Shown piece after piece: positions 3,336 through 57,789 of a DNA stretch of 64,000 bases. How positions within the stretch are numbered: the first letter of the stretch is position 1; every line of letters starts with the position of its first letter. The position numbers were made by a program, and so were the translations under genes. Below the pieces are notes generated by a model. That model searched no databases and was not told where the DNA came from. It was given only the letters and a program-made list of their open reading frames with translations. Source of the stretch: Ginglymostoma cirratum (taxonomy: Eukaryota); NCBI GenBank assembly GCA_024137785.1, contig JAHRHZ010000166.1, forward strand, positions 885,367 to 949,366. Reading direction: 5' to 3'.

Positions 3336-5738
3336 TTACTGTAGAACTTCTTTGGATTCTCCTTTAACTTATCTGACCAAGCTATCTAATATTCTTCACT
3401 TTTTACCTTCTGATTTCCCACTTAAGTGTACTAAATATACCCCGTAAAATCTTTAACCCCGTAAAGGGATTAATTTGTCCCCAGCTACCAATACCTTATT
3501 TTTCTTGACCAAAACACCAATATCTCCTGTCATCCAGTATTCCCGACTCCTTCCAGCCTTGCCTTTCAGACCAGCAGGAACATGCTGGCCTTGTTGTCTC
3601 AATTTTCAATGTCGCCACTTGCCAGACATCTCTTTACCTGCGAACAGCCCTCCCCTAATCAACTTTTGAAAGTTCCTGTCGAATACAATTAAAGTTCATC
3701 TTTCTCCAATTTAGAATTTCAACTGCTGATTTAATTGATGAAGTTCATGTGTTGTGAAAATGTGTTGATCTTTATCCTCACTTACAACAATGCACGTCAG
3801 TTCCATAATTCTGCACTGCCATTTGTTCAAAACGGCACACCAATTGTTTTCAGATTATAGTTATATTTATTTAGAACAACAAACCCATGACATTACAAGT
3901 TATGCTTGACTCAACTTGTAAATGTTTATTTGAATTATTGTAAAAATTATTTGCATTGCATATTTTTTCAGTGAGTTTTTGAAGTCACACAATCATATCT
4001 AAATAGTAAAGAGAATAGGAACATTATGATATCGAATGATCTTTTAAAATATCTTCATTTGTGGGAAGATGCTGGGAATACTGGAATTTGTCACCCATTC
4101 ATAACTGTCCTGGAGAATTTTCCACTGTATCGGTACCATCTACTGTGCATATGTTGTCACTAAAACACTGTTATGTGATGGTTAAGGGTCAATTTAGTGA
4201 TACTTCTGAATGACAGTTGAGTACTTCAGAAGGAATCATTTGACTTATTTAAAACTAGTTAGTTCAACTTGCATTTTGGGCATATTATTCAAATGAATTC
4301 TTGAGGACTGCTTAAAACTTCATTTTAGGAATGTTGGAATAATCTGGAAAAATATACATCAATTTGTGAACGACTCACTCTTGCTTAACTTAACGAAATG
4401 TTATGAGGAAGTGAAAACTTGCTATAAGGCTTTTTCTTGAGATGTCGTCTGTGTGATTTTAACTGTAACTCGTGAACGGTTCCAACTGGGACACAGATCG
4501 TTGACGAAGATTCAGTTGAAGAGGCTGTTGAAATTAGGATCTGAAATTTTCTTATTTTCAAAAAGAAATCACCATTGCAAATTAAATTGCCTCATGTTTA
4601 ATGTCAATGGGGTCCTCAGGGTTAAAGATTCATTAATTGCTTTTAGAAATATTTGTTACTTTCTCTAGATTCAATTAAGAGGGAATAAGAATGTACTTTG
4701 AAGCTATAATAGGAATGAACCCTGACATTGAAAATTTGTGTAATGACATAGAGCAGAACTTATTCATTGCCTGTATGATAGAAATTGAAAAGTTTGCATA
4801 AATCCAGAAATGGTGCACACTATTCTGGGTAGTGAATCTGGGTGGGTAAATACAGTATAGAAGAAAATTGAAGGATGTGCAGCAACAGAGGTGGGCATGG
4901 ATCACAACAGACATTTGGTAGCAGTCTGTCAGCTTGATAAAGTGATTAAAACGCCAGATTACACAGTCAAATATTAAGTGACGTATAAAATTAAAAACCA
5001 AACGTCCTATTATCAATAACAATCATGCGGTCGCTTCATGCTTGTGTATAGCACTAGTCATCCAAAGGATAAATTGAGTTTGGAGTGTTGAACACGTATA
5101 AGGGTGACTGAGAAGGCATACTAATTCACAATAGTTTCGAATATCATTCGTGTCCAGAAGGGAAATGGATTCAAGGCCAGATGAGATTTTTTTCACTGAT
5201 GGAGAAAGCGGGGTGGTGTGCAGGGATCGGAAGAAAGTTAGTTTTCTCTTTTCCTTCTCTTATATTACAAGGAAAGGAAGTCAGTTGTTGTAGGTATGGT
5301 GCAGAGAAACCATCCGTTGTTGCAGGTAGAAATGGAAAACATACATACCATGAAGAAACATTTTATGGTTTGGGTTTGTATGTCTTTGGAGAACAAAAGA
5401 TGAAGAGGTACTTAATTGCCATTCATGCAATTGTGCTGTGTTGTGATGTGGTAAATTTGATCAACATATTCAACATACCAGTGAGGTTGAGACAGTAAGT
5501 TTAAACTTAAAAATAGGTTGAATGATTCGGCTGGTGCAACAGTAAAGAATTTTATCCGATGATGGTCAGGACCTGGACCTCAATTCCTGAAACGCTTATG
5601 GAGGCATATAAATTAATGAGTGACATCTTTAATAAAAGTATCACGTAAGATGACAGATCCAGCACAGGGATTTTTCCAATGGCTTGGCTACATACTGCTC
5701 ATGCACGTATATATCTAAATACTTCCTTCTCTATTCCA

Positions 5739-5783
5739 TCAGGACGTCGGATCTTCAATAAATGTCAAGTGAGCGTAGACAGT
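5739..5783 (-). CDS. Terminal cytoplasmic exon with TVYAHL motif, copy 1
   Basis: attttcttccttAG acceptor; phase 0; TVYAHLTFIEDPTS*. Copy 2 has TVYAHLTFTTKATF* with the same length and stop position at 48671-48627. Confidence 0.85.
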   Translation of the reverse strand, partial: TVYAHLTFIEDPTS

Positions 5784-8700
5784 CTAAGGAAGAAAATGGA
5801 CAGCATTGTGATTTTAGAATCTTCAGGGTAGTATTTGTGCAATTGGTTCTAACCAACTAATCAATCAGATCATACCCAATATGTATAGCTGTATGTATAC
5901 AACTATTTCCAATGGAAAGACGACATTATAAAAATGGAAGTGAGGTGCTTCCTGATTTCCTCCCATAAAAGTGTGTAGTGTTGTTCATAAAATCATAGAA
6001 TTACGCAGTACAAGAAATGGCCTTTAAGCTCATCAAATCTGTACCATCAAAACTCCACCAGTTCTTCTTTAGTCACTTTTGGCCCACATGCTTGGATATG
6101 ATTATGTTCAAAGTGTTCCAAGTATTTTTAATGCTTATACGTTTACCTGCCTCAGCATCCATCACCACCTCCAGCCCCCACCACAGACAGAGCAGTCCTT
6201 AACGCCAGTGCTCTTTGGGTGTTGTTTACACCCCTCCTTAAATCCATTCTAAATTCCCTGCCTTTCACATTAAAGTGCACCGTTTTTCATTTGATCCTTC
6301 AACTCAGGAGAATGTCTGCCTTCTATCCATCTTGCCTCTACCCGCCATAATCAGGGATATCTCTGTCAGCTCTACCCTCAAATCATGTGCTGCAAACAGC
6401 AACAATAACAAAAATCCTGTGTCCCTTTATAGCTAAATTTTTAAATCCAGGGAACATCCTGGAGAATCCCAACTGCACTTCCTCACATCCTTTCAAAAAC
6501 CAGAACACAATGCCCCAGCTGTGCCCTAAACAAGGTTCAGCACAGCTGCAAAAATATGCCTGCTCTTTTAATGCATGCCATGATGATAATTGTAAGTGTC
6601 TTTATGAGTTCATAACTGCAGTAGTAACCTATCATGCTACATTAGGGATCAGTGGCGAAGCACCCCTACATCTTTCTGTTCATCTAAGCTTCAGCATGTG
6701 ATTCATTGAGTACTCATTCAATGAGTACTCCCTTGTTCTGTTACTCCTTCCAAAGTATATCAGCTCACATTTATCAGGGTTAAATTCCAGCTGCCACTGA
6801 TCTACTGTTCTGACCAATCCATTCACATCCTCCTGTAACCTTACTGATTCTTCCTCACTGTCAACCACCTGGCCAATTTTTGTTTATGAAGTTATTTTTA
6901 GGTTCCGCAATCACTAAGGCTTCTCATTTATATCGTTTATATATATACACATCACAAACAAGAAGGGACACAGACTGATTGCTGTGTCATACGATTGAGC
7001 ACGGAAATTCAGTCACACTAACAACATTCTATCACCAGTCTATGTCTCTTCTTTTGGATCTAATTTATAAATTATCCTGGGTTACATGTAATTTAAACCT
7101 ATTTGTCAGTCACATCAGCTCCAGAATGTAGAATGCCTACAGTGTGGAAGCAGACTATCCTGTTCATCGAGTATACACCACTGCTCCAAAGAGCATCGTA
7201 CCCAAAACTACCCCTCTCCTTATCCCTGTATTGCTGCATTTTCCATGGCTAATCCACATAACCTAACGGTTTCTTGACACCATAGGTACATTAGCACGGC
7301 CAATCCACCGTAACCTGCGCATTTTTAGACTGTGAATGGAAACTAGAGCACCCAGGAGGAAACCCACGCAGACGCAGGGAGAATGTGTAGGTGCAGTGCT
7401 AACCAATGAGCCACCGTGTCACCCTAACGTTTGTGACCGAGTTTCACAGTGCTGTATCCTTGGCCCAACTGACTTCAACTTCTTCATCAATGACTTTATG
7501 CCCATCATGAAGTCAGAAGTCAGAATATTTGATGATGTCATAACAAGGTTCCACAATATTTGTGACTCCTCAGATACTGATGTTGTCCATGACATGTAGC
7601 AAATCTCGGATAATATCTATGCTTGGGTGCAAAATTGACAAGTAACAATCATGCCACAATTTTCTGGCATTAATCATCTGCAGAAAGGAAAAAAAAAATC
7701 TCTTCGAGATTCATGCCTTCACTATCTCTGAACACCCACTATCATCATCCTGGGGATTTCAAATGACAAGAAAATGACCTGGACTTCTTATGTATTTACT
7801 GTGGCTGAAAGATTCAACCATAAACCAGGCATTTTACATTCTGTAATTCGCGTCCTACTGAGCAAAGCCAGTGCATTATCTATGAGGCACAATTCAGGAA
7901 TGCGATGGAATACTCCAGATGTGCTGAAATGGGTAATGTTCCAACAATGCATAAATAACTCGTCACCATCCTGCCAAATCATCCCACATCATAGGCACCA
8001 GAACCACATGCAAACAGTTTCTCCGAAAGAAAGAAGAATGTAAGACCATAAGAAATGGGAATATGTGTAGGCCATTCAGATGCTGGAATGTGCGCCCCAG
8101 TCAATAGGATTTTGGCAGAACAGACATTCCTGATATTCATAACAAGGTGTAGAGTTGGATGAACGCAACAGGCCAAGCAGCATCAGAGGAGTTGGAAAGC
8201 TAACATTTCAGGTCTGGACCCTTCTTCACCTTGTTATCTCAGATTCTCCAGCATTCCATTGGCAGTTCCTAATATCTCTGATAAACATATTTCCGTGTTT
8301 TCAATAACCTTGAATTTCCTGTCTGATTAAGAATTTATCTTTCTAAGCCTTAAACATGCACACAGACTCTTTATCCACAGATTTATGTGGCAAAGTGTTC
8401 CAAATTATCATACCACAGGAAAAAAAAACAAAATTTTTCTTCATTTAGTTCTGAAATGGGCAACCCATGTTCTGAGACTATCTTCTTTGCTCCTATACGC
8501 TTCCTTGAGCTCAGCGTTCTTCTCAATATTTACCATATCAAGCTTTCAATTCTGTATCTCACTGCTCAGTAACAATAGTGTGTTCTATCAACAAAGAAGG
8601 GTTACAACAAAAAAATCACCAAAGCACTTCATGCTGCATCTTCCAAATGCATAACTGCTACTGTCTAGAAGGAAATGGGTAGCAGAAACATGGAAACGCT

Positions 8701-11364
8701 GTTACTTGCTATTTCGCCTTCATGTCACTAATCATTCATACGTGGAAATATATCACTGTATCTTCAGTGTTGCTAGTTAGAATTTGTGAACTTTCTCCCT
8801 AACGATCTGTAGGTTTCTCTCAACGACGTGGGCTTCAGCAGAGTTAACTTTCTTTCTCCTTCTCGTTTACTTTTTGCTTTAGCTGTTTTCCTTTTATTTT
8901 CCTTTCCCACTTTTATCTTCATTTTCTTTTTTTATAAATCTGGATAATGGCAGATGAATGCGACGATTTTGTTTGCAGTCGCAGCGGCAACAACAGAAGG
9001 ACAAACCAATCATGGCTCCACCCCAGACTGATATCTCCCACCAAGAGAGGATCAGGTTACAGGCTGACTTCTCCAGCCCCAACTCACAAGCTAGATCAAG
9101 GGTGCAGGTCCGCAGGTAGGCCTAGGTGCCTGAAGGAGAAGTGGTGATCTCAGCACAGTACGGCAGTCTGCTGGAGTAACAGCCTTGGTCCAGCATGGCG
9201 GTCTTGTCCTGGCATGGAGGTATCATCCCCTTATGGAGGTGGTCTTGATCTTTGATTTCCAGTTATTCAAATTGCCTGGCAGATAGTCTCATCCAGGAGT
9301 AGGCGTCTCATACAGGAGTGGCAGTCAAGGTCCTACAGTCTTCTTTGGCAGAGGTTTCTGGCTTAGTACTCCAGCAGCTTAGTGTACTGTTCTTGTGCCA
9401 GAATGGTGGTCTCACCAACGCTACGACTTCAGGATATTCCATCATTCCTTAATTAGTTTTTGGCCAGCCCAGGAACTGTTAACTACACTGTAGTGAACTT
9501 TGTCTAATTTTACATTTTTCTTACTATGTATGCCTTCTGTCACTGATGAAGGTTCCGCGTTGTGGACACTTGCAAAAAAATTTGACATATTTTTTCGTAT
9601 AAAAGTACATGTGGCAATAAATTTCTATTTCATTCTCTTATATGCTGAATGCTGACACAGCCAGCGATGCCCACATCACTTGAATGAATTGAAAAAGAAG
9701 TGATGGTTAAAAGAAAAGGCTCTTTTTTACTATTCACTTTTAATGCACCGTGAGGTTGCTGTAGTCCAAAACATTAAAACGTTCATTGAAATAAGCCAGA
9801 GAAAAAAAATCATGCACTTCCAGGAGAGGTGTCGTGTGGGAGGGTTGCGTCCTGGTGATATTATCAGTGGGCTGTTACTCTGCAAACCGAAGTAATGTCC
9901 TGACTGAGTTCAAATCTACCACGGTATAATGTTTAACGTGAATCCAACAAAAATATGGAATAAAGAGTCTAATGATGACCAAACATCAATTTCCATTTGT
10001 TCGGAAACACCCTTTGCTTCAAGAAGTGAAGTGGAAGACATGCACTTGTCTGTATCAATGTTGTTGAGGTGGAAGTGATAGACAGCTTCAAATTCCTGGA
10101 AATAAACCTCACCAGGAATCTATTCTGGTCCATTCACATCACTCCAGTCAAGAAAGCACGCCAGAAGGCTAAGGAAATTCAGCATGTCAACAATGACATC
10201 TATTAATTTGAATAAATGCACCATTGAGAGCATTCTATCCAGATCTTTCACAGCTTGACATGGCAACTGCTTCGTCTAAGAACGCAAGAAACTACATCAA
10301 GTTGTGAACACAGGCAGGCCATCACTAAAACAATCCTTCCTTCCATTGACTCCGTTTCCTCGAGAAAATAGCTAACATACTCAAACAGCCCTCCAACCCC
10401 CGGTTTCACTCTCGTACATACGCTTCCATGGACAGAATATGCAAAAGTTTGGAAACATGTGCCAACAGACTTAACAAACCTTCTTTAACTCTTTTATCCG
10501 ACTTAAGAACGGACTTCTCAAATCTTAGAGTTGATCTGTCTCTGCACCTTCTCTGTAGCTGGAAAACTATATTCTGAGTCCTGTTCTATTATGCTCCTGC
10601 ACTTGTGCAAGGTACGATTTGTCTGGTGAGCACTCAAAAACATAACAAATCACTCTATCTCAGTACAAGAGAAAATAATAAATCAAATTAAATCAAGTGA
10701 TAATGCCCTTTAGGGAAGAAAACTGTCATATATAACTGACCCAGCCTACTTGTGTATCCCAACCTATGGCAATGTGATTGACACTTAACTGCCCTCTGGT
10801 TAATATACGCTGACTGAGCCCACGTCTCATTCATTCTGTGATTGAGTAATAATAATAATAATAAAAAGAACATGAGAAATAAATACGTTAAGCACTTACC
10901 TCCTGTGTTTGCCCACGTGGTCGCACATCAGTTTTCCAGTTTCCTGATACAAAGACAAAGTTAATCGGTCATAAACTATCATCTCCATCACGTTAACTGA
11001 GATGCAGCACTTGCACAGCACAATAATGCAAAGACAGAGATATAGATCCCAATGGATTTCCATCACGAAAAACATTCCATACCTGAATGCCGATTCCTGA
11101 ATCCCCATCCTGTTCTAATAGTCAGTACAAGAAGGAGGAAGATTATCACTAACAAACTCCCGTAAATCTTGAAAAGGCAAACAGGATGTAGTGCTTCTGA
11201 AGAAAAAAAAAGAGATTACTTAAAAATATATAATCTGCATCAATTTCCAATCATAGAAAACTAATAGAAACACACCAAAACCAACAAACATATTTGGGGA
11301 TGGGGAGTAATTTGGTAGCCCTGTGGAAATAAAACAAGTAGAATGATGGAAAGCACTCACATGA

Positions 11365-11395
<31 letters not shown>

Positions 11396-14300
11396 CACGT
11401 GCGTATGTGTCAGGGAGAGGGACGACTAACTTACGCAAATGCAATAAGATTTGAGAATACATTTCTTTGCCATGTAGAGCAGACAATGACGTTCTAATAT
11501 TTTCCATGTGCTGGTGGTTCCTTGTTATATGAATCCTAATTTTATCCCTTTACTAGGATTTATCCTCAGTTGCCTGTATCTATTTGTGTCAAATCCAAAT
11601 TCCCCTTTGTTTCCTAGAGTGGTAAATCTCAACATTTTTTGCAAATGCAGCAATATGCAGTTATCCCAATTCTATACGTTCAATCTCACATTTAACTTAT
11701 CTCGTATAATCCCTCACATATTTTTTCAGAACACAACCTATTGTTTGCATACACTGACTTGTATGACCAGACATCATTGATTGCTGGAATTTCGAACAAA
11801 TATTGTCTACTTTAAACTTTACCTACACAATTGTTTGAAATGTCAATAAGAGAAAGTTTAAAGGAGATGTGCAAGATGTTCAAAGTGATTTTATTTTTGC
11901 ACAGACAGTGGTAAATGGATGGAATGACCTGCCAGCAGAGACAGACAATATCAACGCTTAAGACAAAATTAGACAGGCACATATGGGATACGAATAATAT
12001 ACAGCAGATGGGATTAGGTTGGAATGATATCATGTGGGCACATATTGTGTGCTGTACTGTTCTAAGTTCACGACATTGAAGATGGCTTCAGTTTCACAAA
12101 TTAGTGTTCGTTCTCCTTAACAAGCTGCACCTTCTCAGTTATAATTCTCAAAACTTCCAGGATATTACAGATCTGTAAGCCTCACATCCGTGGTAGGCAA
12201 GTTATTGGTAAAGATTTACATGGAGAAGATCTATACACATTTAGAAACAAATCAATGTATTAACGATAGCCAGCATGTTTTTGAGTGAGGGAGGTTGTGC
12301 CTTGCTATATTGAGTTTTTTGTGGAGGTGACAAGGATGTTTGTTAAGGGAAAAGCTGCTGATGCTGTTTACATTGACTTCAGTAAAGCCTTTGACAAGGC
12401 CCGTCATGGAAGAATGGTACAAAAGGTGAAGTCACAGAGTATCAGGGGAAGCTGGCAAGATGGATACAGAACTGGATTAGTCAGAATGGACAGAGTGTAG
12501 TAGTGGAGGGATGCTTTTCTGAATGGTGAGCTGTGACTAATGGTGTTTTACAGGGATCAGTGCAGGGACCTCTGCAGTTGTTGGTCTTCATAAATGATTT
12601 AGAAGAAAACGTAGCTGGTCTAATTAGTAAGTTTTTGGGAGATACAAAAGGTTGTGGAGTTGCAGATAGTGATGAGGATTGTCAAAGGATACAACAGAAT
12701 ATAGATGATTTGGAGACATGGGCAGAAAATGGCAGATAGAGTTTAATTCTGACAAGTGCGAGGTGATGAATTCAAGTACAGGTGAAAATTATGCTGTGAA
12801 TGGTAGAACCCTTACCAACATTGATATGTAGAGGAATCTGGGTGTATATGTTCGCAGATCTGACTTGATTTTGACTTGATAGAAGTGTACAAAATGATCA
12901 GAGGTATAGATAGAGTAGACAGCCAGAGACTTTTTCCTAGGATGGAGGTAGCTTTTACGAAGGGACATAGTTTAAAAATGAAAGGCGGTAGATATCAGGG
13001 AGACGTCAAAGGTAGGTTCTTTACTTAGAGAGTTGTAGGAGCATGGAATGCATTGCCGGAGAGGGTAGTGGAATCGGCCTCATTAGGGGCATTTAAGCGG
13101 CTATAAGATAGGCATATGGATGATAGTGTAAGGTAGCGGTGGAGGTTAGAATGACCATAGGTTTCGGGTAAAAGTTCGGCACAACATTGTGGGCCGAAGG
13201 GCCTGTACTGTGCTGTACTGTTCTATGTTCTATGATCACAGATGGCAGAACAGATAGACAAGATCGTAAAAATGCTTATGGCATGATTGCCTTTATTGGA
13301 CGGATAATTAAGGCAAAAGATAGACAAGTAATGCTGCATCTTTATAGAACTTTAGTTTGGCCACACTTGGAATATTGATTACAGTTCTGGTCACCACACT
13401 ACCAGAAGGAAGCTTGGGGAGGGCGGCTGTGGGGAGGCTTACATAAACGACTTACCAGTACGTTGCCTGGAATAAGGTATGTTACCCATGAATTAAGGTT
13501 GTATAGACTGTGTTTGTTTTCAGTGGAATGCGGGAGGATGAAGGGCGACCTGATAGAAATTTATAAGATTACTAGAGGACACGGCTTCAAGGTTCGTGGC
13601 GGGGTGGTGCGGTGTTGAAGTTTAAAATTCGTGTGCCAGGCAGGTTTTTTACACAAAGGACAGTCAGTGTATGGAACGAGCTGCCATACACAATAGTAGC
13701 TTGACAAAAAAAAAATTATCTGGACGAATACTTGAATGGGCGGAGAAATTAGGATCTTGTAATTGAAGACGGTTTTAGTGTGGACAGGCAATATGTGTCA
13801 GAGTAGGCTTTGAGGGACGCAGGACCTATTTTGGTGCTGTGTTGTTCTTTATTCTGGTTTAGAATTAATAAGCATTTTCCAGCATTCACTACAAGCTTAC
13901 TGGGATATGGCCACTTAACATTTTTTTTCCCCTCATTTCTCATTTCATTTTTGTTTAGGCATATGAAGGAGCTGGCATTAAGCCTTGAACTACCTCATCC
14001 AAGTGAATAGAAATAAAGAGATAACAAGGTGCAGAGCTGGATGAACACAACAGGCACATCAGCATCAAAGGAGCAGGAAAGCTGACGTTTCGGACCTAGG
14101 CCCTTCTTCAGAAATTTTCTGAAGAAGGGTCTAGGCCTGAAACGTCAGTGTTCCTACTGCTATGATGCTGCTTGTCCTGCTGTGTTCATCTAGCTCTGCA
14201 CCTTGTTATCTCAGAGTTTCCAGCATCTGCAGTTCTTACTATCTCTGAATAGAAATAAAGTTGATTTGCCTGTATATATTAACATATGACTGCAAGAAGT

Positions 14301-16573
14301 CACTCGCATTGAAGTGGACATTAAGGTCAAATAATGTCAAAGAAAATAATTCATAATATGAAGGACAGCATTTCGAATAAAGGAAGTGGAGTCTCCCAAA
14401 TTAACATTGATGTCATGAAACTTGGAATACCATGGATGTCTCTGTACTTGGTTTAGCAAAAGATGGATATGTCCTGCGGAAAGTAAGATAACAAGTTTTG
14501 AGGATGCCCCTGGAATATAATGGTGCGTCACTCAGAAAAGATTGTGAAAACATAAACTTCTTGCTTTTGAAAGGAAAAGTGTTGGTCTGGCAGATACTTT
14601 AAGGCTTTAATCAAACAGATCAAATCAAACATAAGAATTTTACAATACTGAGGCAAACGAATCTAATAGCTACAATGATAATAGTTTTGCCAATACATTC
14701 ATTTGAAATTTGCGGTGAACTTTTGTGTTCCGTTAAGCTATGCATATTGAAACCACTATCAAAAAGACGATCTGGGATGTGCTGTATTTAGACGCTTTAT
14801 GGTTGAACGAATGCTAGTGTAATAATTCCTTAACAAAACTCAGGGGAAAGGGATGTGAAGATATACATATTGATTACGTTTATTAAGTTTGAGAGGGATC
14901 TGGGAAAATCTGAATTTACTTACTGAACTAAATAATCCTTTAATGAGTTACAAATTCCTTGAAACACAAATAGTATTGAAACGCAGTAAGACAAAAGTCA
15001 CAAAATGAAAATTGCATGTCCCAATCCTATTCAACAAAATGTAAAAGCGCAAAAGGTAGGGCCAATGATGTAGAAAATACAACATCAGAACCATGAGCAG
15101 CATGAAAGTTATAAACTGTAAGATAATTAAACGTGAACACAAACAAGGAAACTTTTGGAATATCACATTTATATTGCTAATAATACACATTGGCATTATG
15201 ACAAGAAATAAAGTGACATTCAATAGATACCTTTCTTTTGTGAAACAATTTCACTGGTAAGAATTTCTTTTGAGTTGGTTCGAGCTGAGCAACTATGTAC
15301 AACACCATGCTTCCAAACTTCTCCTGGGGCTCTTATATGGCTCATGATGCTGTATGCCCCAGTGGCGTCCATTGTCCATGTAAGCATCCAAACCTCAGCA
15401 TTCCATGTGGAAGTATTCCAACTGATATTAAGCGTTTTGGATATGACATTTTTAACTAAGCAAATCAAAGGGACAACTTCCATCTGAAAAATGTCCTTCC
15501 TTGGTGGGGATAACATCAGTATGTTTGATGGACCTGATGAGATTGGGAGGAATGTTAAAATTAATATTCGACTATTATTCGTTGGTCTATGCTAGACTAT
15601 CAGAATGGGTTTTATTTCTTACCCGCTATGAGCAATTTAGAGCCATTTCCAAAAATGAAGGGCGTTCCATAAGATTTTCTAGCTGCACAGTAATACAGAC
15701 CCGAGTCATTCCTTTGAGCATTCTCAATCACAAGGGAATAAATAGATGCTTCGGTATTAATTTCTCCTGAATATCTTTGTTGTTTGGGGAAGCCATTTCT
15801 CACAATATAAACGAACTGTAGATGTTCTCGCAGATGCTGTTTGTACCAGAGAACCGCTCCGCTCGCAAACCAACCTGTGTGGCAATGCAGTTTAATGGTA
15901 CTTCCAACAGAATCTCTCTGGATTGGTGGAGTCTGCGGGAAGACTGTCTGAGAGACAATAACTGAGAAAAAAGAAACACATATCACATGAACTCTGAAAA
16001 GACACAGAAAATAAAAACAATAACTAAAGTAGCATCCAGCTGTAAACTGAGGGAAGCACCGTTAAAGATTACTGGTCATACTGTGAGATTCTTCAACATG
16101 GTGAGAGACAGAAAAGGAGAAAGAAAGAGGAAAGAAAGAGAGAAAGGAAGGAAGGAAGATAAATGAAAATAAATTTAAAAAGGAAGGAAAAATAAGTTAA
16201 ATGAAGAATGACCGTTTACATTTAATCTCAGAAATACAGCATACAAACCCGCTCAAAGGATTAGACCACAAAAGACCCTGACATAAAATTGAGATAAGCA
16301 GTTTTCGTTTCATCGGGGTGGCAATTATGAACAAAGATCTGTACAGTTGCTAATAACACTACAGACCATGTTTTCCCATTATTGCTCAGCATCAGTAGAA
16401 ATTCGTTCCATTTTGATTGTCCTTGATAATTTAGTTCTTCAATACGATGCTGATATTGTAAAATGTTAAACATCAATATTCTCTTCACCCGATTTGCCAG
16501 CAATATACGATGGGAGAAAGAAAATCGAACCTGGAAAAAGATGGGCCACCGCACATAGAGTGAAGATATTCAT
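5739..16573 (-). CDS. Non-rearranging antigen-receptor-like IgSF gene, copy 1 (L - VJ - C1 - TM - CYT1 - CYT2 with ITIM/ITSM-like motif); PRARP/VJC1-like; ~295 aa
   Basis: Hand-spliced exons 16573-16531, 15961-15623, 15533-15231, 11196-11083, 10943-10900, 5783-5739 (43+339+303+114+44+45=888 nt). All introns are GT-AG, phases are 1,1,1,1,0, and there is no internal stop. Product: MNIFTLCAVAHLFPVIVSQTVFPQ...LHC...VLWYKQ...DSGLYYCAARKSYGTPFIFGNGSKLLIAG-PSNILMLSPP...LICLVK...ISW...YSIMSHI...WKHGVVHSC...QKKE-ALHPVCLFKIYGSLLVIIFLLLVLTIRTGWGFRNRHSG-NWKTDVRPRGQTQE-TVYAHLTFIEDPTS*. Every exon except the leader has a homologue in copy 2. Confidence 0.85.
5990..7110 (-). mobile_element. Old CR1 LINE fragment
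   Basis: ORF 6680-6868 (DSEEESVRLQEDV...WQLEFNPDKC). Similar sequence occurs at about 48860-49800 in the duplicated segment. Confidence 0.75.
7125..7425 (-). mobile_element. HE1-like SINE
   Basis: Reverse complement of the SINE at 22390 (ggaaacccacgcagac, ccaatccac, gctaacca). Confidence 0.75.
7430..9700 (+). mobile_element. Old fragmented LINE 3' region with younger insertions
   Basis: RT-like ILGPTDFNFFINDF...VRIFDD; 3' end gccagcgatgcccacatc. The same element sits at the equivalent position in copy 2 (about 53640-54910). Confidence 0.6.
10020..10697 (+). mobile_element. Rex/Babar-like LINE 3' fragment inserted into a SINE-like repeat (~9830-10830)
   Basis: VEVIDSFKFLEINLTRNLFWS...RRLRKFSMS...TIESILS; ends in aataaatcaaattaaatc. 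Confidence 0.6.
10900..10943 (-). CDS. Cytoplasmic exon 1, copy 1
   Basis: ctttgtatcAG acceptor and GAG|GTAAGT donor; 44 nt; (G)NWKTDVRPRGQTQE. Same-length homologue at 55054-55097. Confidence 0.85.
11083..11196 (-). CDS. Stalk-Cys plus transmembrane exon, copy 1
   Basis: tttttcttcAG acceptor and CAG|GTATGG donor; 114 nt. Encodes (E)ALHPVCLFKIYGSLLVIIFLLLVLTIRTGWGFRNRHS; homologue at 55238-55350. Confidence 0.88.
11365..11395. repeat. (GT)n microsatellite
   Basis: Read directly from the sequence. Confidence 0.95.
11830..13850 (+). mobile_element. CR1 LINE fragments (nested 3' ends)
   Basis: ORFs 12285-12500 (YIDFSKAFDK), 12533-12739 (VLQGSVQGP...INDL) and 13187-13378 (LYRTLVWPHLEY). Confidence 0.85.
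14019..14245. mobile_element. Palindromic Penelope-terminal-repeat-derived mini element with 15-bp TSD
   Basis: Inverted arms of about 95 bp centred near 14115. Direct repeat TGAATAGAAATAAAG at 14004-14018 and 14246-14260. The arms match the 3' end of the PLE at 58555-58685. Related copies at about 1480, 8140, 39060, 43655 and 59560. Confidence 0.85.
15231..15533 (-). CDS. C1-type Ig constant domain exon, copy 1
   Basis: atctcatcAG acceptor and AG|GTATCT donor; 303 nt; phase 1/1. Motifs LICLV, ISW, TGAYSIMSHI and WKHGVVHSC resemble TCR/Ig C1 domains (ORF 15220-15516). It sits only 89 nt from the V exon. Confidence 0.9.
15623..15961 (-). CDS. Germline-joined V-J domain exon, copy 1
   Basis: ttttctcAG acceptor and G|GTAAGA donor; 339 nt. 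Contains V-set Cys (LHC), Trp (WYKQ), DSGLYYC and J-type FGNGSKL in a single exon (ORF 15612-15986). Confidence 0.95.
16531..16573 (-). CDS. Candidate leader (signal peptide) exon of copy 1: MNIFTLCAVAHLFP(V)
   Basis: ATG plus 14 codons plus 1 nt, then CAG|GTTCGA. Phase 1 matches the V exon and gives an Ig/TCR-style split leader ending IVS-Q. The donor is weak and I found no homologue in copy 2. Confidence 0.5.
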
Positions 16574-23900: not shown

Positions 23901-23919
23901 AGAAGTCAGGAAATAAAAT

Positions 23920-24790
23920 TGACTGAGAAAGATGCTTGGTGGAGTTGGCTCATTCACCACAACTGAAGAATAAATTTTGGACTGGAGTTCAGCAGGATGA
24001 ATAGCATCTAGCAGAGGGTGGCATTGTGAAGTGCCTCAGGATGATTCTATGAGCAAATGGCTCAGTCAGCACTACTTAAGAGGGATATCAGAGAATGTGG
24101 TGCTCAAAAGAAGGAAAGACATTCAACAGAGGCTAATAGTGTGAGGTGACTGGGGACTACTCTAAGTGAAGACAGCTCAATTACCACAACTGAATGGGAA
24201 ATCATAGATTATCCAGTGACACAACAGGAAGCAAAGGCAGTTATAGGAAATGACTGATGACGATTCTGGAAGAAGGCAGCTTGCTCACTACATCTGAGGA
24301 GGAAATCACAGAAGACCCAGTGATCAAGAAGAGGAAGTGTACCCAACAGAGGGTGTTAGAGAAATGCGACTGAAGAGAACACTAGAAAAAAATAAATAAA
24401 ACACTCTGAACACAGCTTAGGATGGTTTCGTGTAGCATCAGATGCTCTGCTGGAGAAAGCGGATCAGGATGTGAAGGAAGTGATGTCGACTCTGGATGAG
24501 CGCAGTTCATTGAACATAGCAGAGATGGAGATCATTGAGGGCCAAACGCTCAACAGCAGAAAGAATACCTAACAGAGGGCAGTAGAGAGAAGTGATTCAT
24601 GAGGATTCCAAGAATTGTTGATTCGCTCCCTGCACCTGAATTCAGAATCACATTGGAACATATTCTCAACAGGAAGAAGAACACCCCACCTAGGGTGAAA
24701 TACGACTTAGGAGGATTTTGGAAGAAATCAGTTCGATTACCAGAACTGATAAGGTTGCTCAACAGGAGAACCCAACAGACTGTGCTCGTT
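23920..24790 (+). repeat. Degenerate ~115-bp tandem array (left part)
   Basis: Recurring gactgaga/gg...ggagaag..agctca.tcaccacaactga units near 23921, 24035, 24148, 24252, 24368, 24488 and 24703. Confidence 0.65.
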
Positions 24791-45677: not shown

Positions 45678-46315
45678 GACTGAGAAGGATTTTGGGAGAA
45701 GTCAGCTCAGTTACTGCAAATGGCCAGACAATCGGAGAGGATTTGGTGCTTGGTAGAATTAAGGGCAGCAAATAGAGGGCGGTGGTGAGAAATAACTGAC
45801 ATGGATTCCAGTTGAAATGAAAAATAGTAATTAGCAGGGAACAATGCTGTAGACAGACTGGGAACGATTCTGGATGATGTTGGTTTAATCCGACAGATAG
45901 CAGCTGTGAAAAGTGACAGAGAAGAACTTCCAGAGATGTTACCCCGCTCACTGCAGAGGATGTGGTGAAGAAAGAACATCTAATAGAGGATAATAGATAG
46001 AAGTTAGTCAGGAGAATTCTTGGAGAAATTAGCACAATCACCCCAACTGAAACCGGGTTCATGAGGAACCAAGTGTTCAACAGAAGGATGAGAGTCCATA
46101 GAATGACACAGAAAATTGACTTAGGAGGATATTTGGAGATGTCAACTTGATCACCACAACTGAGCAGGGAATCCCTCAGAACCCGATGCTCAAAAGTTGA
46201 AAATTTATTCAACATTCAGTGGCAATGAAAAGTGATTGAGTGGGATTATTGGAGATGTTGGCTCACTCACCACAACTGAGCAGGGAATAGCAGATACCCC
46301 AGTACTCACTGTAGA
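45678..46315 (+). repeat. Degenerate ~115-bp tandem array (right part)
   Basis: The same unit near 45679, 45856, 46005, 46118 and 46233 (e.g. ggagatgt....t..tcaccacaactgagcagggaat twice). Confidence 0.7.
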
Positions 46316-49300
46316 CTCACTTATACATGGTGCATGTTAGTTCCATGACCTTGCACTCTCATTCATCAAGACTGCGTACTAAATGTTTGCAGATTAAAAT
46401 TAAATTTAGCTCAAATAATAAATACAATAGATTACAAATTGTGCTGCGTAATGATTGTCAATCGTCCATTGGATTATTGTAAAAAGCATGTGAACTACAT
46501 AATTTTCACAGGTGAACACAAAGAAAACAGTTACATCGAAAAGGCTAAACAGTGACTTCAGTTTGAAATATTACCATATTGAACAGTGTTTTTTATGCAT
46601 TTCTTTATGAGAGGATATTAACAAGGTTAGAATGCATTACCCATCTGTAACTGTTCTGGACAATTTCTTGCTGAATCCGTTCCAGCTATTGTGAATCGGT
46701 TATCACTAAGACACAGTCAGCTGATAGAGAGGGCATAGTTCTGTTGACTCTTCGTGACTGATAGCCAAGTACTTCAGCACACTGAGAGGATAGTCCGATG
46801 AATTAAACGCCAATCTATTCAACTTCAATTCTGTCCATGATAATCAAACTAATTCTAGAAAACTGTTTATAACCCTTCATTTTGGAAGATATGCAAAAAT
46901 CTGAGAGAATTTGCATAGATTTGATCCGGAAATTTTTTTTTTCTTAACCTAATTAAATTTTATAAAGAACTGGACCTTTACTATACAGTCTGGCTACGTT
47001 GTCCAAATTAATTTTCAACAGGACATGTCGGAAAGTTCTCAGTGCCAACCAGATCAAAGGCAAAACTTCCATTGCAATTCCAGAGAGGGTGGAAATTTGA
47101 ACCCAATATTCACTTATTTTTAAGAGAAAATTTCGTTGAAAGTTAAGTGGCTTAGTAACTTCGATCTTAATTTTAGTGGACTCACAGAAACCATCACCTG
47201 TTAATAGAAATGTTTATTAATTTTCTCAATTCAAGACAGAAACAAGAATTATTTTTGCAGGTGGAAAGGAAGCGATCTCCAATTATGACAGTTAGGAGCA
47301 GTAACATCAACAGGAAAATATAAAGTATATGTTTTGTGTGGTAAAGAAAACATATGGACAATGGAATTTCATTTAGAAATATTGCAGATAATTCTGGGAA
47401 ATGGAGTAATGTCTACAAAACGGTATGTAAATCCAATACAGGGATAAAATATGAGTAATATTGAAGGACTGAAGTCCATGTGGAGCACAGCAAATAATTG
47501 AAGGCAGATGTAGAGTTTGACATTCATCTTTTCCTCCTGCGCGTATATTAAAAGACGAGGAGGTTGTTTGCTCTGGATATTGTGTAGTGGAGCTTTCAGA
47601 GTTTGCACATTGGAAGGAAGATATTACGATGAATAAATATTTGTTAGCTTGGGTTTGTTCTTCTTGGAACAAAGGAGCCTGAATAATGAAATATAGTGTA
47701 CAGCAGTACAATACAGGAATAGGCCATTTCGGGCACCATGTCAGCGCCAAACATGGTGCAATTCTCAACTATTCCCACCTGTCCGTATTTTGGCATATCC
47801 CACTATTCTATGCCACTTCAATTAACCCGTCCAAATGTCTCTTAAACTTTGCTGTCATATCTGCCTCCTGTATATTTTCTGCTAAGGACGCGATGGCAGT
47901 GGAGGCAATAGTCATATGGATTTCCCTGGACTGTTAGTACTGACACAAATTGATGTTTTGTTGAGTTCAAATTCTGCCATGGACGATAGTGGAATTTGAA
48001 AACAATAAAAATCTTTAATTAAAAGCCTCTTGATGATCGTGAATCCATTGTCAATTTTTTGGAAAACCCCATCTGGTTCACGGATCTCATTTTGGTTAGG
48101 AAGCTGGTGTTCTTACTTGGTCTGGCCTAAATATGATACTGAACCCACTCCATGTGGTTAACTCGCAACTGTCCTCTGGCCAATTAAGGATGTGCAATAA
48201 ACACTGACCCAGTCACCGATGCCCTCATCCTGTTATTGAATAAAGAAAAGGTACTAACAGTCCTCTGTGTAAAAATCACTCATTTGGATTGTATATAATT
48301 ATGCCATGTAACTCTGAAATAAATTTGAACCAGTTACAAAATGTGCCAGGGGGATCACGTAAAATGAGCACAAGATTAAAAAGACTTGAATAATGTGATT
48401 GGTGCAAAAGTAATATATTTCATCAGAAGATTTTAACAACTCAGACATCAATTCCTCAAAAGCTTCTGGAGGCAGAAAATCAAATCCTATATAAAAATGT
48501 ATTCGAACGACATCTTGAATAACAAATCATGCAGGTCTATTTCCTGTTTGAATGCAGAAAATTTGACTCAGGCTTAAAGACAATTTATCCATCGACATGA
48601 ATGTGAATACATCTTTCTGTTTTCCCTCAGAATGTCGCTTTTGTAGTGAAGGTCAAGTGAGCATAGACAGTCTATGGAAGAAAACAGAGACCACAATGAT
48701 CATGGAAACAAAGTGATACGTTTTGCCCATTCAATCCTTCATCCTCACCAACCATTAATTTGATATTCGCTGATGATTGTAGCAGTATTTAAGTAATTGC
48801 TTCGAGTGGACAAGCAACATTTAAAAAATGGTGAATTATTTCCAGGTGCAGGATTGGAAAGGTCATTCAACAAATCTAGTCTTAGCCGCCTAAAGTACAT
48901 TCAATCTACATGAATACCACTTTCCAACACTTGGCTCATAGCTTTGAATGTTATGATGTTTCAAATACTCATCCTAGTACTTTAAAAATGTTATGAGACT
49001 ACTTGCTTCTATATCCAGGACTCCATCTCACTTTCTGTGATTTTATTCCCTTAAATTGCCTCTAAATGTCTTGAAGTTCACCTAAAAATTCGCCTCTCCT
49101 AACTTTTCTTATGACTTGTAAACTCAGCGGAATAGCTGATGGCTATCCACCTTGTCTATATCCGTGATAATGATATAGACCTCTATCAGGACCACGCATA
49201 ACAATACCCGCTTCAACAAAACCAACTCGACCCAATCCTATCTCCCTTCTTAGCTAAAATGCTCCATCACGGACAAAACCGTGGAGAAGTTACACTCTAT

Positions 49301-53290: not shown

Positions 53291-55452
53291 GTTTCATACA
53301 ATTACTGACATTAAATGCTTAATTTGACATACTGCCGGTCCGACTAAAATCCGTTGATACAGAGGTCGATTTCATCCAAAGAGGGTCAACTCTTACACCA
53401 TAACAGCCCTGATCCAAAAGGAGGAAAGGGGCTGAATTCCAGGTGTGTCATAAGTATCAGCTCATGAAATGAAGCCCACATTTGAGAGTGTACAGCAATC
53501 AGAATACCACTCCCCAAAAAAGTTAGAGCCAATAGAAATCAGTGGAGGAATTTCTCCACTTGTTGGATTCATAACTTGCACAAAAATTGTCATGCTGGAT
53601 GGAGGTCAGTCATCTCAGCTGAAAGACATCTTGGAAGCAATTAAATATGATAGAGTTCTTGGCCCAAATATCTTAGGCTAATTCATCGTTGACTTTCCGT
53701 CCAACCTGAAATTAGAAGTGGGAATGTTTGCTAATTACTAAGCAGCATTTAACAGTATTTGCGACACCCCAGAAACAGAGATAGTCCATTCCCAAATGCA
53801 GAGGTCCATGATGTCATGATTTTGGGTGGCACCGTTTCACTGTGGTTAGCACTGCTGCCTTACAGCGCCAGGGATCCCAGGTTCGATTCTATCCTTGGGT
53901 GACTGTCTGTGTGGAGTTTACACATTCTCCCTGTGTCTGCATGTGTTTCCTACCACAATCCAAAGATGTGCAGGCTAGGTGGATTGGCCATGCTAAATTA
54001 CCCGTAGTGTTCAGGGATGTGTAGATTAAGGGGATATCTCTGAGTGGGATGCTTTGTGTGTTGATGTGGGCTCGTTGGGCCAAAGGGCCTGTTCCCTTGC
54101 TGTCGGGGTTCTATGATTCTGTGATGTTCACTTTTGCGTGGAAAGGTGTCAGGTATCATTTGTGTTGCACAGAGATCATGGATTAATCATATCTAGAAAG
54201 AAAGAATCTAACAATTGCTTCTTGAAATTCATGGCATCTCCATTACTGAAGCCCCATCTTCCCACTATCAACGCCAATAACAAGAAAATGAACTGTCTGT
54301 ATTGTGGCTGAAAGGTCAGACAGAAAACTAGAGATCTTGCATCGAGTAACTGACCTCCCACTAACAACATCCTGTCTATTACCTGCAAGACATGACTCAA
54401 GACTGTGATGGAACACTCCCTGCTTGCCGAAATGAGTTCTAACAATGTTCAAGATTGTCGACACTGTCCTGGGATATAACTGCCCAAGATGGAAGCTCCA
54501 CAACCACAGCTATTCATTTCCTCCACCACTGATGCTCGGTAACAGAACTGTATATATTCTATAAGCATCGGTGAAAGTGTTCACCAAAACGCTTCAGACA
54601 GCATCTTCCAAATGCAAAAACATCTAACATCTGTATGGACATAGGCGGCAGGTATATGGAATCATGACCACTTGTGATTTACACTTGTAATCACTCACAA
54701 ATATTACTTGGAAATATATCAAATGCCCTTCAATGTCACTCGGTCAAAATCTTTGCACACTCACTCTAATGGCATTGTGGCATGTTCTAAACTAAATGGA
54801 ATTCAGCAGCTCAAAAACACAGTTCGTTGCCGGCTTCTTAATGGTAATTGCTCATCGGAAATAAATGCTAACCCAGCCAGAGACGCTTATTTGAACGAAT
54901 TGGAAAAAGGTGTTAAATAATGCCATTTTGCATTTTTCCCCTTTAACATGCCAGTAAGTTTCTATAGACATAAATATTAAACATTGATTATAAAACCAGC
55001 CTCAGGAAATCACAACTTTTGACAGCATTAAAAAAAGAACGCGAAATGCTTATCTCCTGCTTCTTTTCACGTGCTTTCACATTACTTTTCCAATTCCCTA
55101 AAATAAAGAGAAATGTAACTGTTTATAGAGTATCACTTCCATCATGTAAATTAATACCTAAACGTTAAGCAGCATAGTAACACAGAAACAGGGATGTAGG
55201 TGCCAATGTATTCACAACACCGAAATGCATTCCTTACCTGCATGCTGATTCCTGTATCTCCATCCTGTTGCAAACAGCTAAGATAATGAGGAGAAAAATC
55301 AGCAACTTGGAAATACCAAAAAATATTTAATAGACATGGTGGATGTGCCGCTGTTGAAGAAGAAAAGCAAAGTTTTTTTGAAGATTTATGATGTCCAATT
55401 ATTGAAAACTAATGGAAACTCAAAAAAGTCAATTCAATTTCATTACTTTATT

Positions 55453-55930: not shown

Positions 55931-57789
55931 AGCTGTGGAGAGAAACAGACTACTCATGACAAAAATTTAAGATTGTAGAATAAGATGACCTTGAAGTAAT
56001 GGATGTCTGGAATGGGGAATAGACATCTGATGTTCCACATGCATTTTCTGTTTCCTTACTATTTGAACCCTAATTCAGTCACCTTATTAGGATATATTTT
56101 CAGGTGTCTGTTCGTCTCAAATCCAAATTTAACTTCGCCTCCTGGAATGAGAAAATCTTAATGCTTCACCCAACACAGTAATATGCACTTACACTAGCTC
56201 CCTGCTTTCGCTTGATATTTAACTTCTCATCTGTGATACCTCATGTCCTCTTCTGGATACACTTCGTGATGACAGAACTAGTAGACAGAAATATAATGTA
56301 TTCACCAATAAATGCACATGGGCTTTCGTGTGAACTTTTCAATCGAAACTGAGGTCTTTCCAAGCAAAAAGGCATCACTATCTCAAAAACCTTCTGAGGA
56401 GTATTATGTTTTTAGAGTTTTGTGGTTGAAGGAATTCAACGTGAATTTCTTTCAGAAAATGTAGATGTACGAATTGTATGATGTTTAATATGTTTGTGAA
56501 TAAAACTGCATGCAACAAGAAAAACTACACTGGCTAAACAATCTCTTTCTGTATTGCAAATCGCATGAAATGCAAATTGCATTTTGAGGCTATAAGAAGG
56601 AAAGTCACGAAAACAAAACATGCATTTTTTCAAACTTAGGTGACAAACTTTTAAATTGCTGCATACCTTTCCCTATAGAGGGATAACCACGGACAAAAGA
56701 ATCATGTAGAAAACTAAACAGCAGAACTGTCCACGACGTAAAACGTTGTAAACTAGTAGACAATTAAACCTAAAATAAGGAAGCATTTATCAAATTAAAT
56801 CTGTGTCACGAACAAGAAATTCCCACATCAGCACCATAACTACGAATAAAGTAACAATCAATAATACCTCTCTTCCATTAACATTATCACTGATAAGAAT
56901 GTCTTTTGAGTTGAGTAGGACCAAGCTAGTACATTCAGCAACTTGGTTCAAAGCTTCTGCCGGGACTCCGATATGGCTGATAATGCTGTATGCCTCAGTG
57001 GAGTCCAGCATCTCAGTAGCTGTCCAACCCACAGCATTCCATGCGGAAACATTCCAACGGAATGTACGTATGTTGAAATTGGCATTTTTCACTAAACAAA
57101 TCAATTGGGCGGCTTCCAAAGAAAAAATATCGTTCAATGGTGGGTCCAATATCATCATAGCCGACGAACCTGAAGAGACTGGGGGGAAATCTGTCATTAA
57201 TAATCAATATTTATTCATGGGGTTTGTGGTAGACTAAATAAATAGTTTTTAATTCTTACTCATTATGGACAATGTCGGGCCATTTCTGAATATGAAAGGC
57301 GTTCCATAAAATTTCCTAGCTGCACAGTAATACTGACCAGAGTCATTTCTCTTTACATCTTGAATTTCAAGAGAATAAATGGACGATTCGTTGTTAATTT
57401 TTCCTAGGAATCTTCAATGTGGAGGAACGCTTGTTGTTTGTACCAACGAACAACTCCCCTTGGAAACTAACCCGTGTGGCAATCCAGCTTAATGGTACTT
57501 CCAACTGAAACAGTCTGGATGGCTGGCGCTTGCAGGAAAACGGTCTGAGAGACAATGGCTGAGAAAACAAAAGACACATCAAAGAGATTGCACAAAGACA
57601 GGGAAAAAGAAATCCAGTAGTTTCTGTTAGGAAACTGGAGGAAGAATAACGAACGATTACCAGTCATACTGTGCAATGCTGCAAAAGACATAGAAGGAGA
57701 GATAGAAAATCTGAATGAAAGAAAGAAAATGAAAAAAATGGAATAAATAATAGCCCTTTACACTTAATGAAATATCATGTCAAGCGTTA

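Follow-up and report, generated by a model that had tools for sequence, protein, structure and literature searches.

Positions 5783-5739 (minus strand) of a 64,000-nucleotide stretch of nurse shark (Ginglymostoma cirratum) DNA form the last coding exon, joined by splicing, of a membrane receptor of the non-rearranging VJ-C1 kind; on balance, we favor reading its tyrosine motif as a likely inhibitory dock for SHP-2-type phosphatases. The stretch, referred to here as the window, occupies C166:885367-949366 (contig JAHRHZ010000166.1) and holds two copies of the gene, of which copy 1 ends in this exon. The working motif is, as read from the sequence, longer than first described, and runs T-x-Y-A-x-L-x-F.

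Organization and splicing of copy 1

The six exons of copy 1, all on the minus strand, total 888 nt with one stop, and every intron is GT-AG. A leader exon (16573-16531) is followed by a VJ exon (15961-15623; Pfam V-set, E 2.9e-14; covered by a contig of sequencing run X2), whose FGNGS end indicates germline joining of V and J and which splices straight into the C1 exon (15533-15231). The latter scores 28 bits against the Pfam C1-set profile, for which the cut-off is 21, and this second domain of the protein matches C1-set only. The transmembrane (TM) exon (11196-11083; 114 nt, phase 1-1) encodes a hydrophobic core without a charged residue, and the first cytoplasmic exon (10943-10900; 44 nt) runs from phase 1 to phase 0, matching the phase 0 entry of the last exon. 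The last exon contributes 14 codons and a TGA, encoding TVYAHLTFIEDPTS-stop, and closes a product of 295 amino acids with the build leader-VJ-C1-TM-tail. Its motif, T-V-Y-A-H-L-T-F, is centered on Tyr284, 28 residues beyond a membrane segment that ends near residue 256; the joints from TM exon to tail exon to last exon place it in the cytoplasmic tail, where it is the single tyrosine motif and lies close to the C terminus. The 3' UTR (5738-4500) reaches at least to 4500, the edge of the stretch examined, with X2 contigs covering 5321-5783, 4841-5327, and 4500-4563, and a signal scan gave candidate AATAAA polyadenylation signals at 3930 and 3871.

The joint 5783-10900, with CT..AC ends, occurs in an X1 contig at depth 9, in an X2 contig at depth 10.8, and in one raw read of X6, and thus in three of the four sequencing runs examined; the fourth, X7, has two reads over the locus and gives no useful cover. 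X6 is an RNA run, and X1 and X2 are RNA by guess only, though their joints do jump introns at CT..AC ends. The TM-tail joint (10943-11083) is found in X1, X2, and X6, the V-C1 joint in X2 and X6, and the leader-V joint (15961-16531) in X2; the TM-tail and tail-last exon joints are of equal depth in X1 and in X2. A C1-to-TM joint was not found among the 15 of 36 joints listed. RNA backing for the splicing of copy 1 is thin, consisting of low-depth contigs from two runs guessed to be RNA and one raw read. In the C1-TM intron, a short interspersed repeat forms a 97-nt inverted pair (14018-14212) with its arms 1 nt apart. The V-C1 contig of X2 stops at the donor of C1, in the manner of a branch.

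The original prediction of a terminal coding exon reached by a direct splice from 10900 to 5783 is borne out by these joints. It had also offered a route through a micro-exon at 9758-9738, which we have set aside for now: no joint to it appears among the 15 of 36 listed, an unspliced contig runs across 9567-9838, the other cluster copies hold no counterpart exon, and the closest database model (P0007) joins QTQE directly to TVYAHL. Rare use of the micro-exon is possible. The description of the last exon as hidden is apt insofar as it is absent from the open reading frame track, but 7 of 8 database models from other shark and ray species finish with a TVYAHL-type last exon, among them a whale shark model with the tail QTQETVYAHLTFIEDPKF; since these NCBI models end in it, the exon is already annotated elsewhere. 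One bamboo shark database isoform (P0001 compared with P0282) skips the TM exon in frame yet still encodes the tyrosine motif; such a form would be soluble.

Conservation of the last exon in copy 2 and in the cluster

The first 20 nucleotides of the exon occur twice in the window (5783-5764 and 48671-48652, both on the minus strand), against 0.01 occurrences expected from shuffling, and the sole difference is a synonymous one, TAC or TAT in the tyrosine codon. In both copies the exon follows a pyrimidine tract and a TAG acceptor and runs for 14 codons to a TGA, so that the claims of near-identity and of a common acceptor and stop stand. The further claim that the flanks had diverged strongly was overstated. 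Where the copies can be aligned, their DNA is 69% identical over 3,932 columns, alignment still takes in the acceptor and the first bases of the 3' UTR, and, with the V, C1, and TM exons at 68-71%, the divergence of the flanks is about equal to that of these exons. The two copies are products of an old tandem duplication.

Copy 2 adds less to the argument than had been supposed. Its terminal exon (48627-48671, minus strand; TVYAHLTFTTKATF-stop) still has an open frame, and to this extent conservation in both paralogues holds; however, the gene is broken. The donor (55053-55052) of its first cytoplasmic exon (55054-55097), which would lead into the last exon, reads AT and not GT; two single-base insertions break the frame of the TM exon region (approximately 55230-55360); and the VJ exon region (approximately 57255-57565) has an in-frame TAG at 57469-57467 as well as 15- and 25-nt deletions, all of these minus-strand defects being read from the assembly. 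Copy 2 is thus, by its sequence, a pseudogene in which the last exon persists as a relic, and therefore no second functional witness; the relic is evidence of past selection and not of present function.

The 20-nucleotide match is by itself not unique, because the V exon, the C1 exon, and repeats likewise hold stretches of this length with at most one mismatch between the copies. Together with the decay of copy 2, this could suggest that the match is a chance or conversion peak and the peptide free of selection. The pattern of codon changes appears more telling than the match: codons 1-8 of the exon carry three synonymous and no replacement changes between the copies, whereas codons 9-14 carry one synonymous and seven replacement changes. 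Moreover, the peptide or close variants of it recur in nine further cluster copies and in 15 shark and ray homologues. A chance or conversion origin is hardly credible in light of these data, which refute it for the family and leave it room only in the delayed decay of copy 2.

These further copies belong to a cluster of about 760 kb, with at least 12 related VJ exons between 635 and 1,393 kb of C166, about two-thirds of which was examined. Searches of genome DNA and with strict patterns returned the two window copies and two matches on other contigs, and the paralogues surfaced from the cluster sequence itself. The last exon is present in 11 of 12 copies; for the copy at 981 kb it was not found in the DNA examined there. 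The V exon is open in eight copies, six of which carry the tail motif T-L/V-Y-A-H-L-A/T-F, the other two reading GLYAQLAF and TSYAPLKF. Leucine at +3 is found in all 11 last exons and threonine at -2 in nine. The copy at 777 kb, which is decayed, with a stop in V and C1, reads TLNARLAS and has lost the tyrosine.

Mean V identity between cluster copies is 56%. Stops or frameshifts in V affect 4 of the 12 copies (at 777 kb, 942 kb, which is copy 2 of the window, 981 kb, and 1,089 kb), a pattern that we take as the birth-and-death turnover that clusters of immune receptors typically show. A plus-strand copy at C166:802.0-805.0 kb consists of VJ, TM, and tail exons without a C1 exon; a Stegostoma model (P0021) is a V-only form like it. 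The TM exon of the 1,089-kb copy was not located. None of the TM segments read in the cluster carries a charged residue at its center, and hence no activating partner is seen. The first identifiable neighbor gene is a clathrin propeller repeat match (L051:7149-7823, at about 1,437 kb of C166), about 44 kb past the last copy and the one gene-like match among the 76 of 422 candidate frames of the flanks run against Pfam. The window also holds two diverged, mutually related arrays that repeat about every 113 nt (23915-24300 and 45984-46308).

Selection on the tyrosine motif of the last exon is supported by two further comparisons. Among the eight open-V copies, pN/pS is 0.25 over the eight motif codons and 0.67 over the next four, and elsewhere in the genes it is 0.47 for V, 0.62 for C1 (seven of the copies), 0.69 for TM (six), and 0.64 for the first tail exon (seven), values to be read with the knowledge that the motif window was chosen for looking conserved, that pairs are non-independent, and that distances are uncorrected. 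Mean amino acid identity among cluster copies is 0.79 in the motif and 0.31-0.56 elsewhere. In the 15 elasmobranch homologues, tallied with a pattern that demanded Y-[AT]-x-[LIV] and that all rows matched, the tyrosine, alanine at +1, and leucine at +3 are invariant, which answers the expectation of conservation in other elasmobranchs. Phenylalanine occupies +5 in 11 of the 15 and isoleucine or valine in the other four; position -2 is threonine in ten, aspartate in three, and serine in two; and position -1 is hydrophobic (V/L/I/M) in 13.

The motif and its candidate partners

The tyrosine-based inhibitory motif of immunoreceptors (ITIM) is defined as (S/I/V/L)xYxx(I/V/L) and a switch motif (ITSM) as TxYxx(V/I) (PMC12151841). 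The motif of copy 1 has the leucine at +3 of a strict ITIM but threonine at -2, and the threonine at -2 of a strict ITSM but leucine, as throughout the family, at +3. The earlier placement of the motif between the two classes was sound in that it fails both strict forms; that analysis ended at +3, however, and so missed the conserved phenylalanine at +5. The additional positions bear on the choice of partner. The C-SH2 domain of SHP-2 prefers (T/V/I/y)-x-pY-(A/s/t/v)-x-(I/v/l), phenylalanine at +5 aids both of its SH2 domains, the N-SH2 domain favors leucine at +3, and the binding sites of SHP-1 and SHP-2 are conserved across jawed vertebrates (PMC12151841). As a match of residues, T-2, A+1, L+3, and F+5 of copy 1 fit all of these SHP-2 preferences, from which we infer an inhibitory receptor that would recruit SHP-2 or a relative; F+5 together with A+1 points to SHP-2-type phosphatases. 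Against this reading, the motif departs from both textbook forms, T-2 is replaced in 5 of the 15 homologues, and a hydrophobic residue at -1 is a SAP-linked feature.

In the mechanism that we propose, binding of a ligand via the V domain would cluster the receptor, a Src-family kinase would phosphorylate the tail tyrosine, and SHP-2 (or SHP-1 or SHP-2L) would bind the phosphotyrosine and damp activation. Because each chain carries a single motif, occupying both SH2 domains would take two chains. A bridging model with two chains for the SH2 domains of SHP-2 exists for PD-1, whose ITSM, (T/V)EYATIx(F/Y), has T-2, A+1, a hydrophobic residue at +3, and F+5 in common with the shark motif (PMC12151841). 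The two receptors nevertheless differ: PD-1 has two motifs, glutamate at -1, isoleucine at +3, and a single V domain, whereas the shark receptor has one motif, a hydrophobic residue at -1, L+3, and a VJ-C1 ectodomain. The ITSM of the CD150/SLAM family, TIYxx(V/I), shares T-2 and the hydrophobic -1 with the shark motif, which differs in its L+3 and in being the only one in its tail. SLAM ectodomains are of the V-C2 type, in contrast to V(J)-C1 here.

The likeness to CD150 raises the question of a switch, in which SAP (SH2D1A) or EAT-2 would make the receptor co-stimulatory in some lymphocytes and SHP-2 would act where SAP is absent. The affinity of SAP for the TIYxx(V/I) motif of CD150 depends on the hydrophobic residue at -1 (PMC12151841), and both this feature (13 of 15 homologues) and T-2 (10 of 15) are matched in the sharks and rays. 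An sh2d1a-like gene marks a T-cell subset of the bamboo shark (PMC11372145); the locus identifier LOC122552429 is absent from the main text of the bamboo shark single-cell work and from four of its supplement files (one of them in part), where other gene identifiers may be used. However, the L+3 of all 15 homologues falls outside TxYxx(V/I), T-2 is gone from the ray members, which have aspartate, and from two cluster copies, and SHP-2 preferences account for the conserved A+1 and F+5. We therefore regard a CD150-type switch as rather unlikely.

Still another role would be mainly in trafficking. Signals of the form Y-x-x-hydrophobic bind the mu subunit of AP-2 and drive endocytosis; Y-A-H-L fits this form, and a lone motif near the C terminus would suit it. 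That this is the main function seems improbable, as such signals do not require the conserved A+1, T-2, and F+5, and the two roles can in any case coexist. An inhibitory dock for SHP-2-type phosphatases is, among these readings, the one that we prefer.

A family of non-rearranging VJ-C1 receptors

Among 1.84 billion representatives searched, proteins of VJ-C1-TM build with a single tyrosine motif in the tail were found from sharks, rays, lungfish, coelacanth, sturgeon, paddlefish, and eel and, among tetrapods, from a caecilian, a frog, turtles, lizards, crocodilians, and birds. They are mostly named immunoglobulin-like, with labels that include heavy, kappa, or lambda chain-like. From 51 rows, a quick tree taken without T-cell receptor constant chains gives the elasmobranch clade that includes copy 1 SH-aLRT support of 99, its grouping with lungfish, sturgeon, and tetrapod proteins 87, and the separation of the whole group from Ig light chains 100. 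A V-only tree, from which 7 of 41 rows dropped out for want of a pattern match, agrees more weakly, at 98 for the elasmobranch clade and 80 for the wider grouping. The V domain of a lungfish SIRP-beta-2-like protein is not part of the clade and sits on a long branch, and a search of the PDB matched antibody chains only.

The PRARP-type non-rearranging receptors, a name that we presume to apply here, probably have their cartilaginous-fish branch in this family. PRARP-type receptors have a germline VJ, one C1, a TM segment, and one ITIM/ITSM-like tyrosine, as does copy 1, and the shark family fits the receptors reportedly described by Fu et al. in 2019 (J Immunol 202:1992). Proteins of this build from lungfish, sturgeon, amphibians, reptiles, and birds form a group with the shark clade, at the support given above for the full-length and V-only trees. 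Because no sequence named PRARP was among the homologues returned by protein searches, the presumed identity rests on build and tree. There are differences also. The chicken has a pair, PRARP1 and PRARP2, as opposed to at least 12 copies in the nurse shark cluster, and the YAxLxF tail here contrasts with the TEYA/TDYA-x-V/L of most reptile members. A literature search found no description of the shark cluster, though one may exist in Fu 2019, Ohta 2019, or Flajnik 2023, which were beyond its reach.

Other receptors are less similar. SIRP proteins resemble the shark receptor in a V domain with a J-like end, the use of C1 domains, and a tyrosine-based inhibitory tail, but they have two C1 domains and several inhibitory tail tyrosine motifs, compared with one of each here. 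The NITRs combine V with a second domain of the I type, whereas that of the shark receptor is C1-set only. UrIg and UrIg2 share with it an elasmobranch origin, a non-rearranging VJ exon, and C1-type domains; UrIg2 of the nurse shark has nine C domains, in contrast to one C1 and a tyrosine-motif tail here, and the main text of the UrIg2 paper makes no mention of ITIM, PRARP, or VJC1 (PMC12227049).

The genomic setting offers a further point of comparison. PRARP is placed in the MHC (PMC10751288), whereas the shark cluster lies on C166 and most MHC class I matches lie on a different contig, C2. A gene of a second VJ-C1 subfamily is found on C168 (L041:6791-7558), among light-chain genes, and APH1 and carbonic anhydrase are on C169, contigs that cannot be joined to one another. 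In Stegostoma, Chelydra, and Alligator sinensis, the second subfamily is apparently on the same contig as the first. One of the light-chain genes of C168 (L044:6328-8154) appears to be V-J joined in the germline. Placement of the cluster within the Ig/TCR complex gained no support, with no C166 row among the C1-set candidates scored (150 of 248). Dense C1-set matches on C85 (1.8-3.5 Mb) and C84 (6.8-7.4 Mb) are possibly another large V-C1 receptor cluster.

The last exon is real but ordinary, and a short exon with a tyrosine motif matters less than the family to which it belongs, which is under-described. For shark lymphocytes, the catalogue of inhibitory receptors is poor, and antibodies and T-cell receptors have been proposed to derive from non-rearranging VJ-C1 genes as their raw material (PMC10751288, PMC12227049). 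In a 12-copy cluster whose V domains are diverse and whose tail motif is fixed, there are concrete, testable candidates that are currently mislabelled in databases. The broadest reading, which we put forward as a tentative and still doubtful one, is that sharks and rays possess an expanded, fast-diverging PRARP-type cluster in which VJ-C1 ectodomains of the antigen-receptor kind are wired to one conserved SHP-2/SAP switch motif. If true, this would be a brake system undescribed in cartilaginous fish, germline-encoded and NK receptor-like, built from the unit that RAG later split and extending from sharks to birds.
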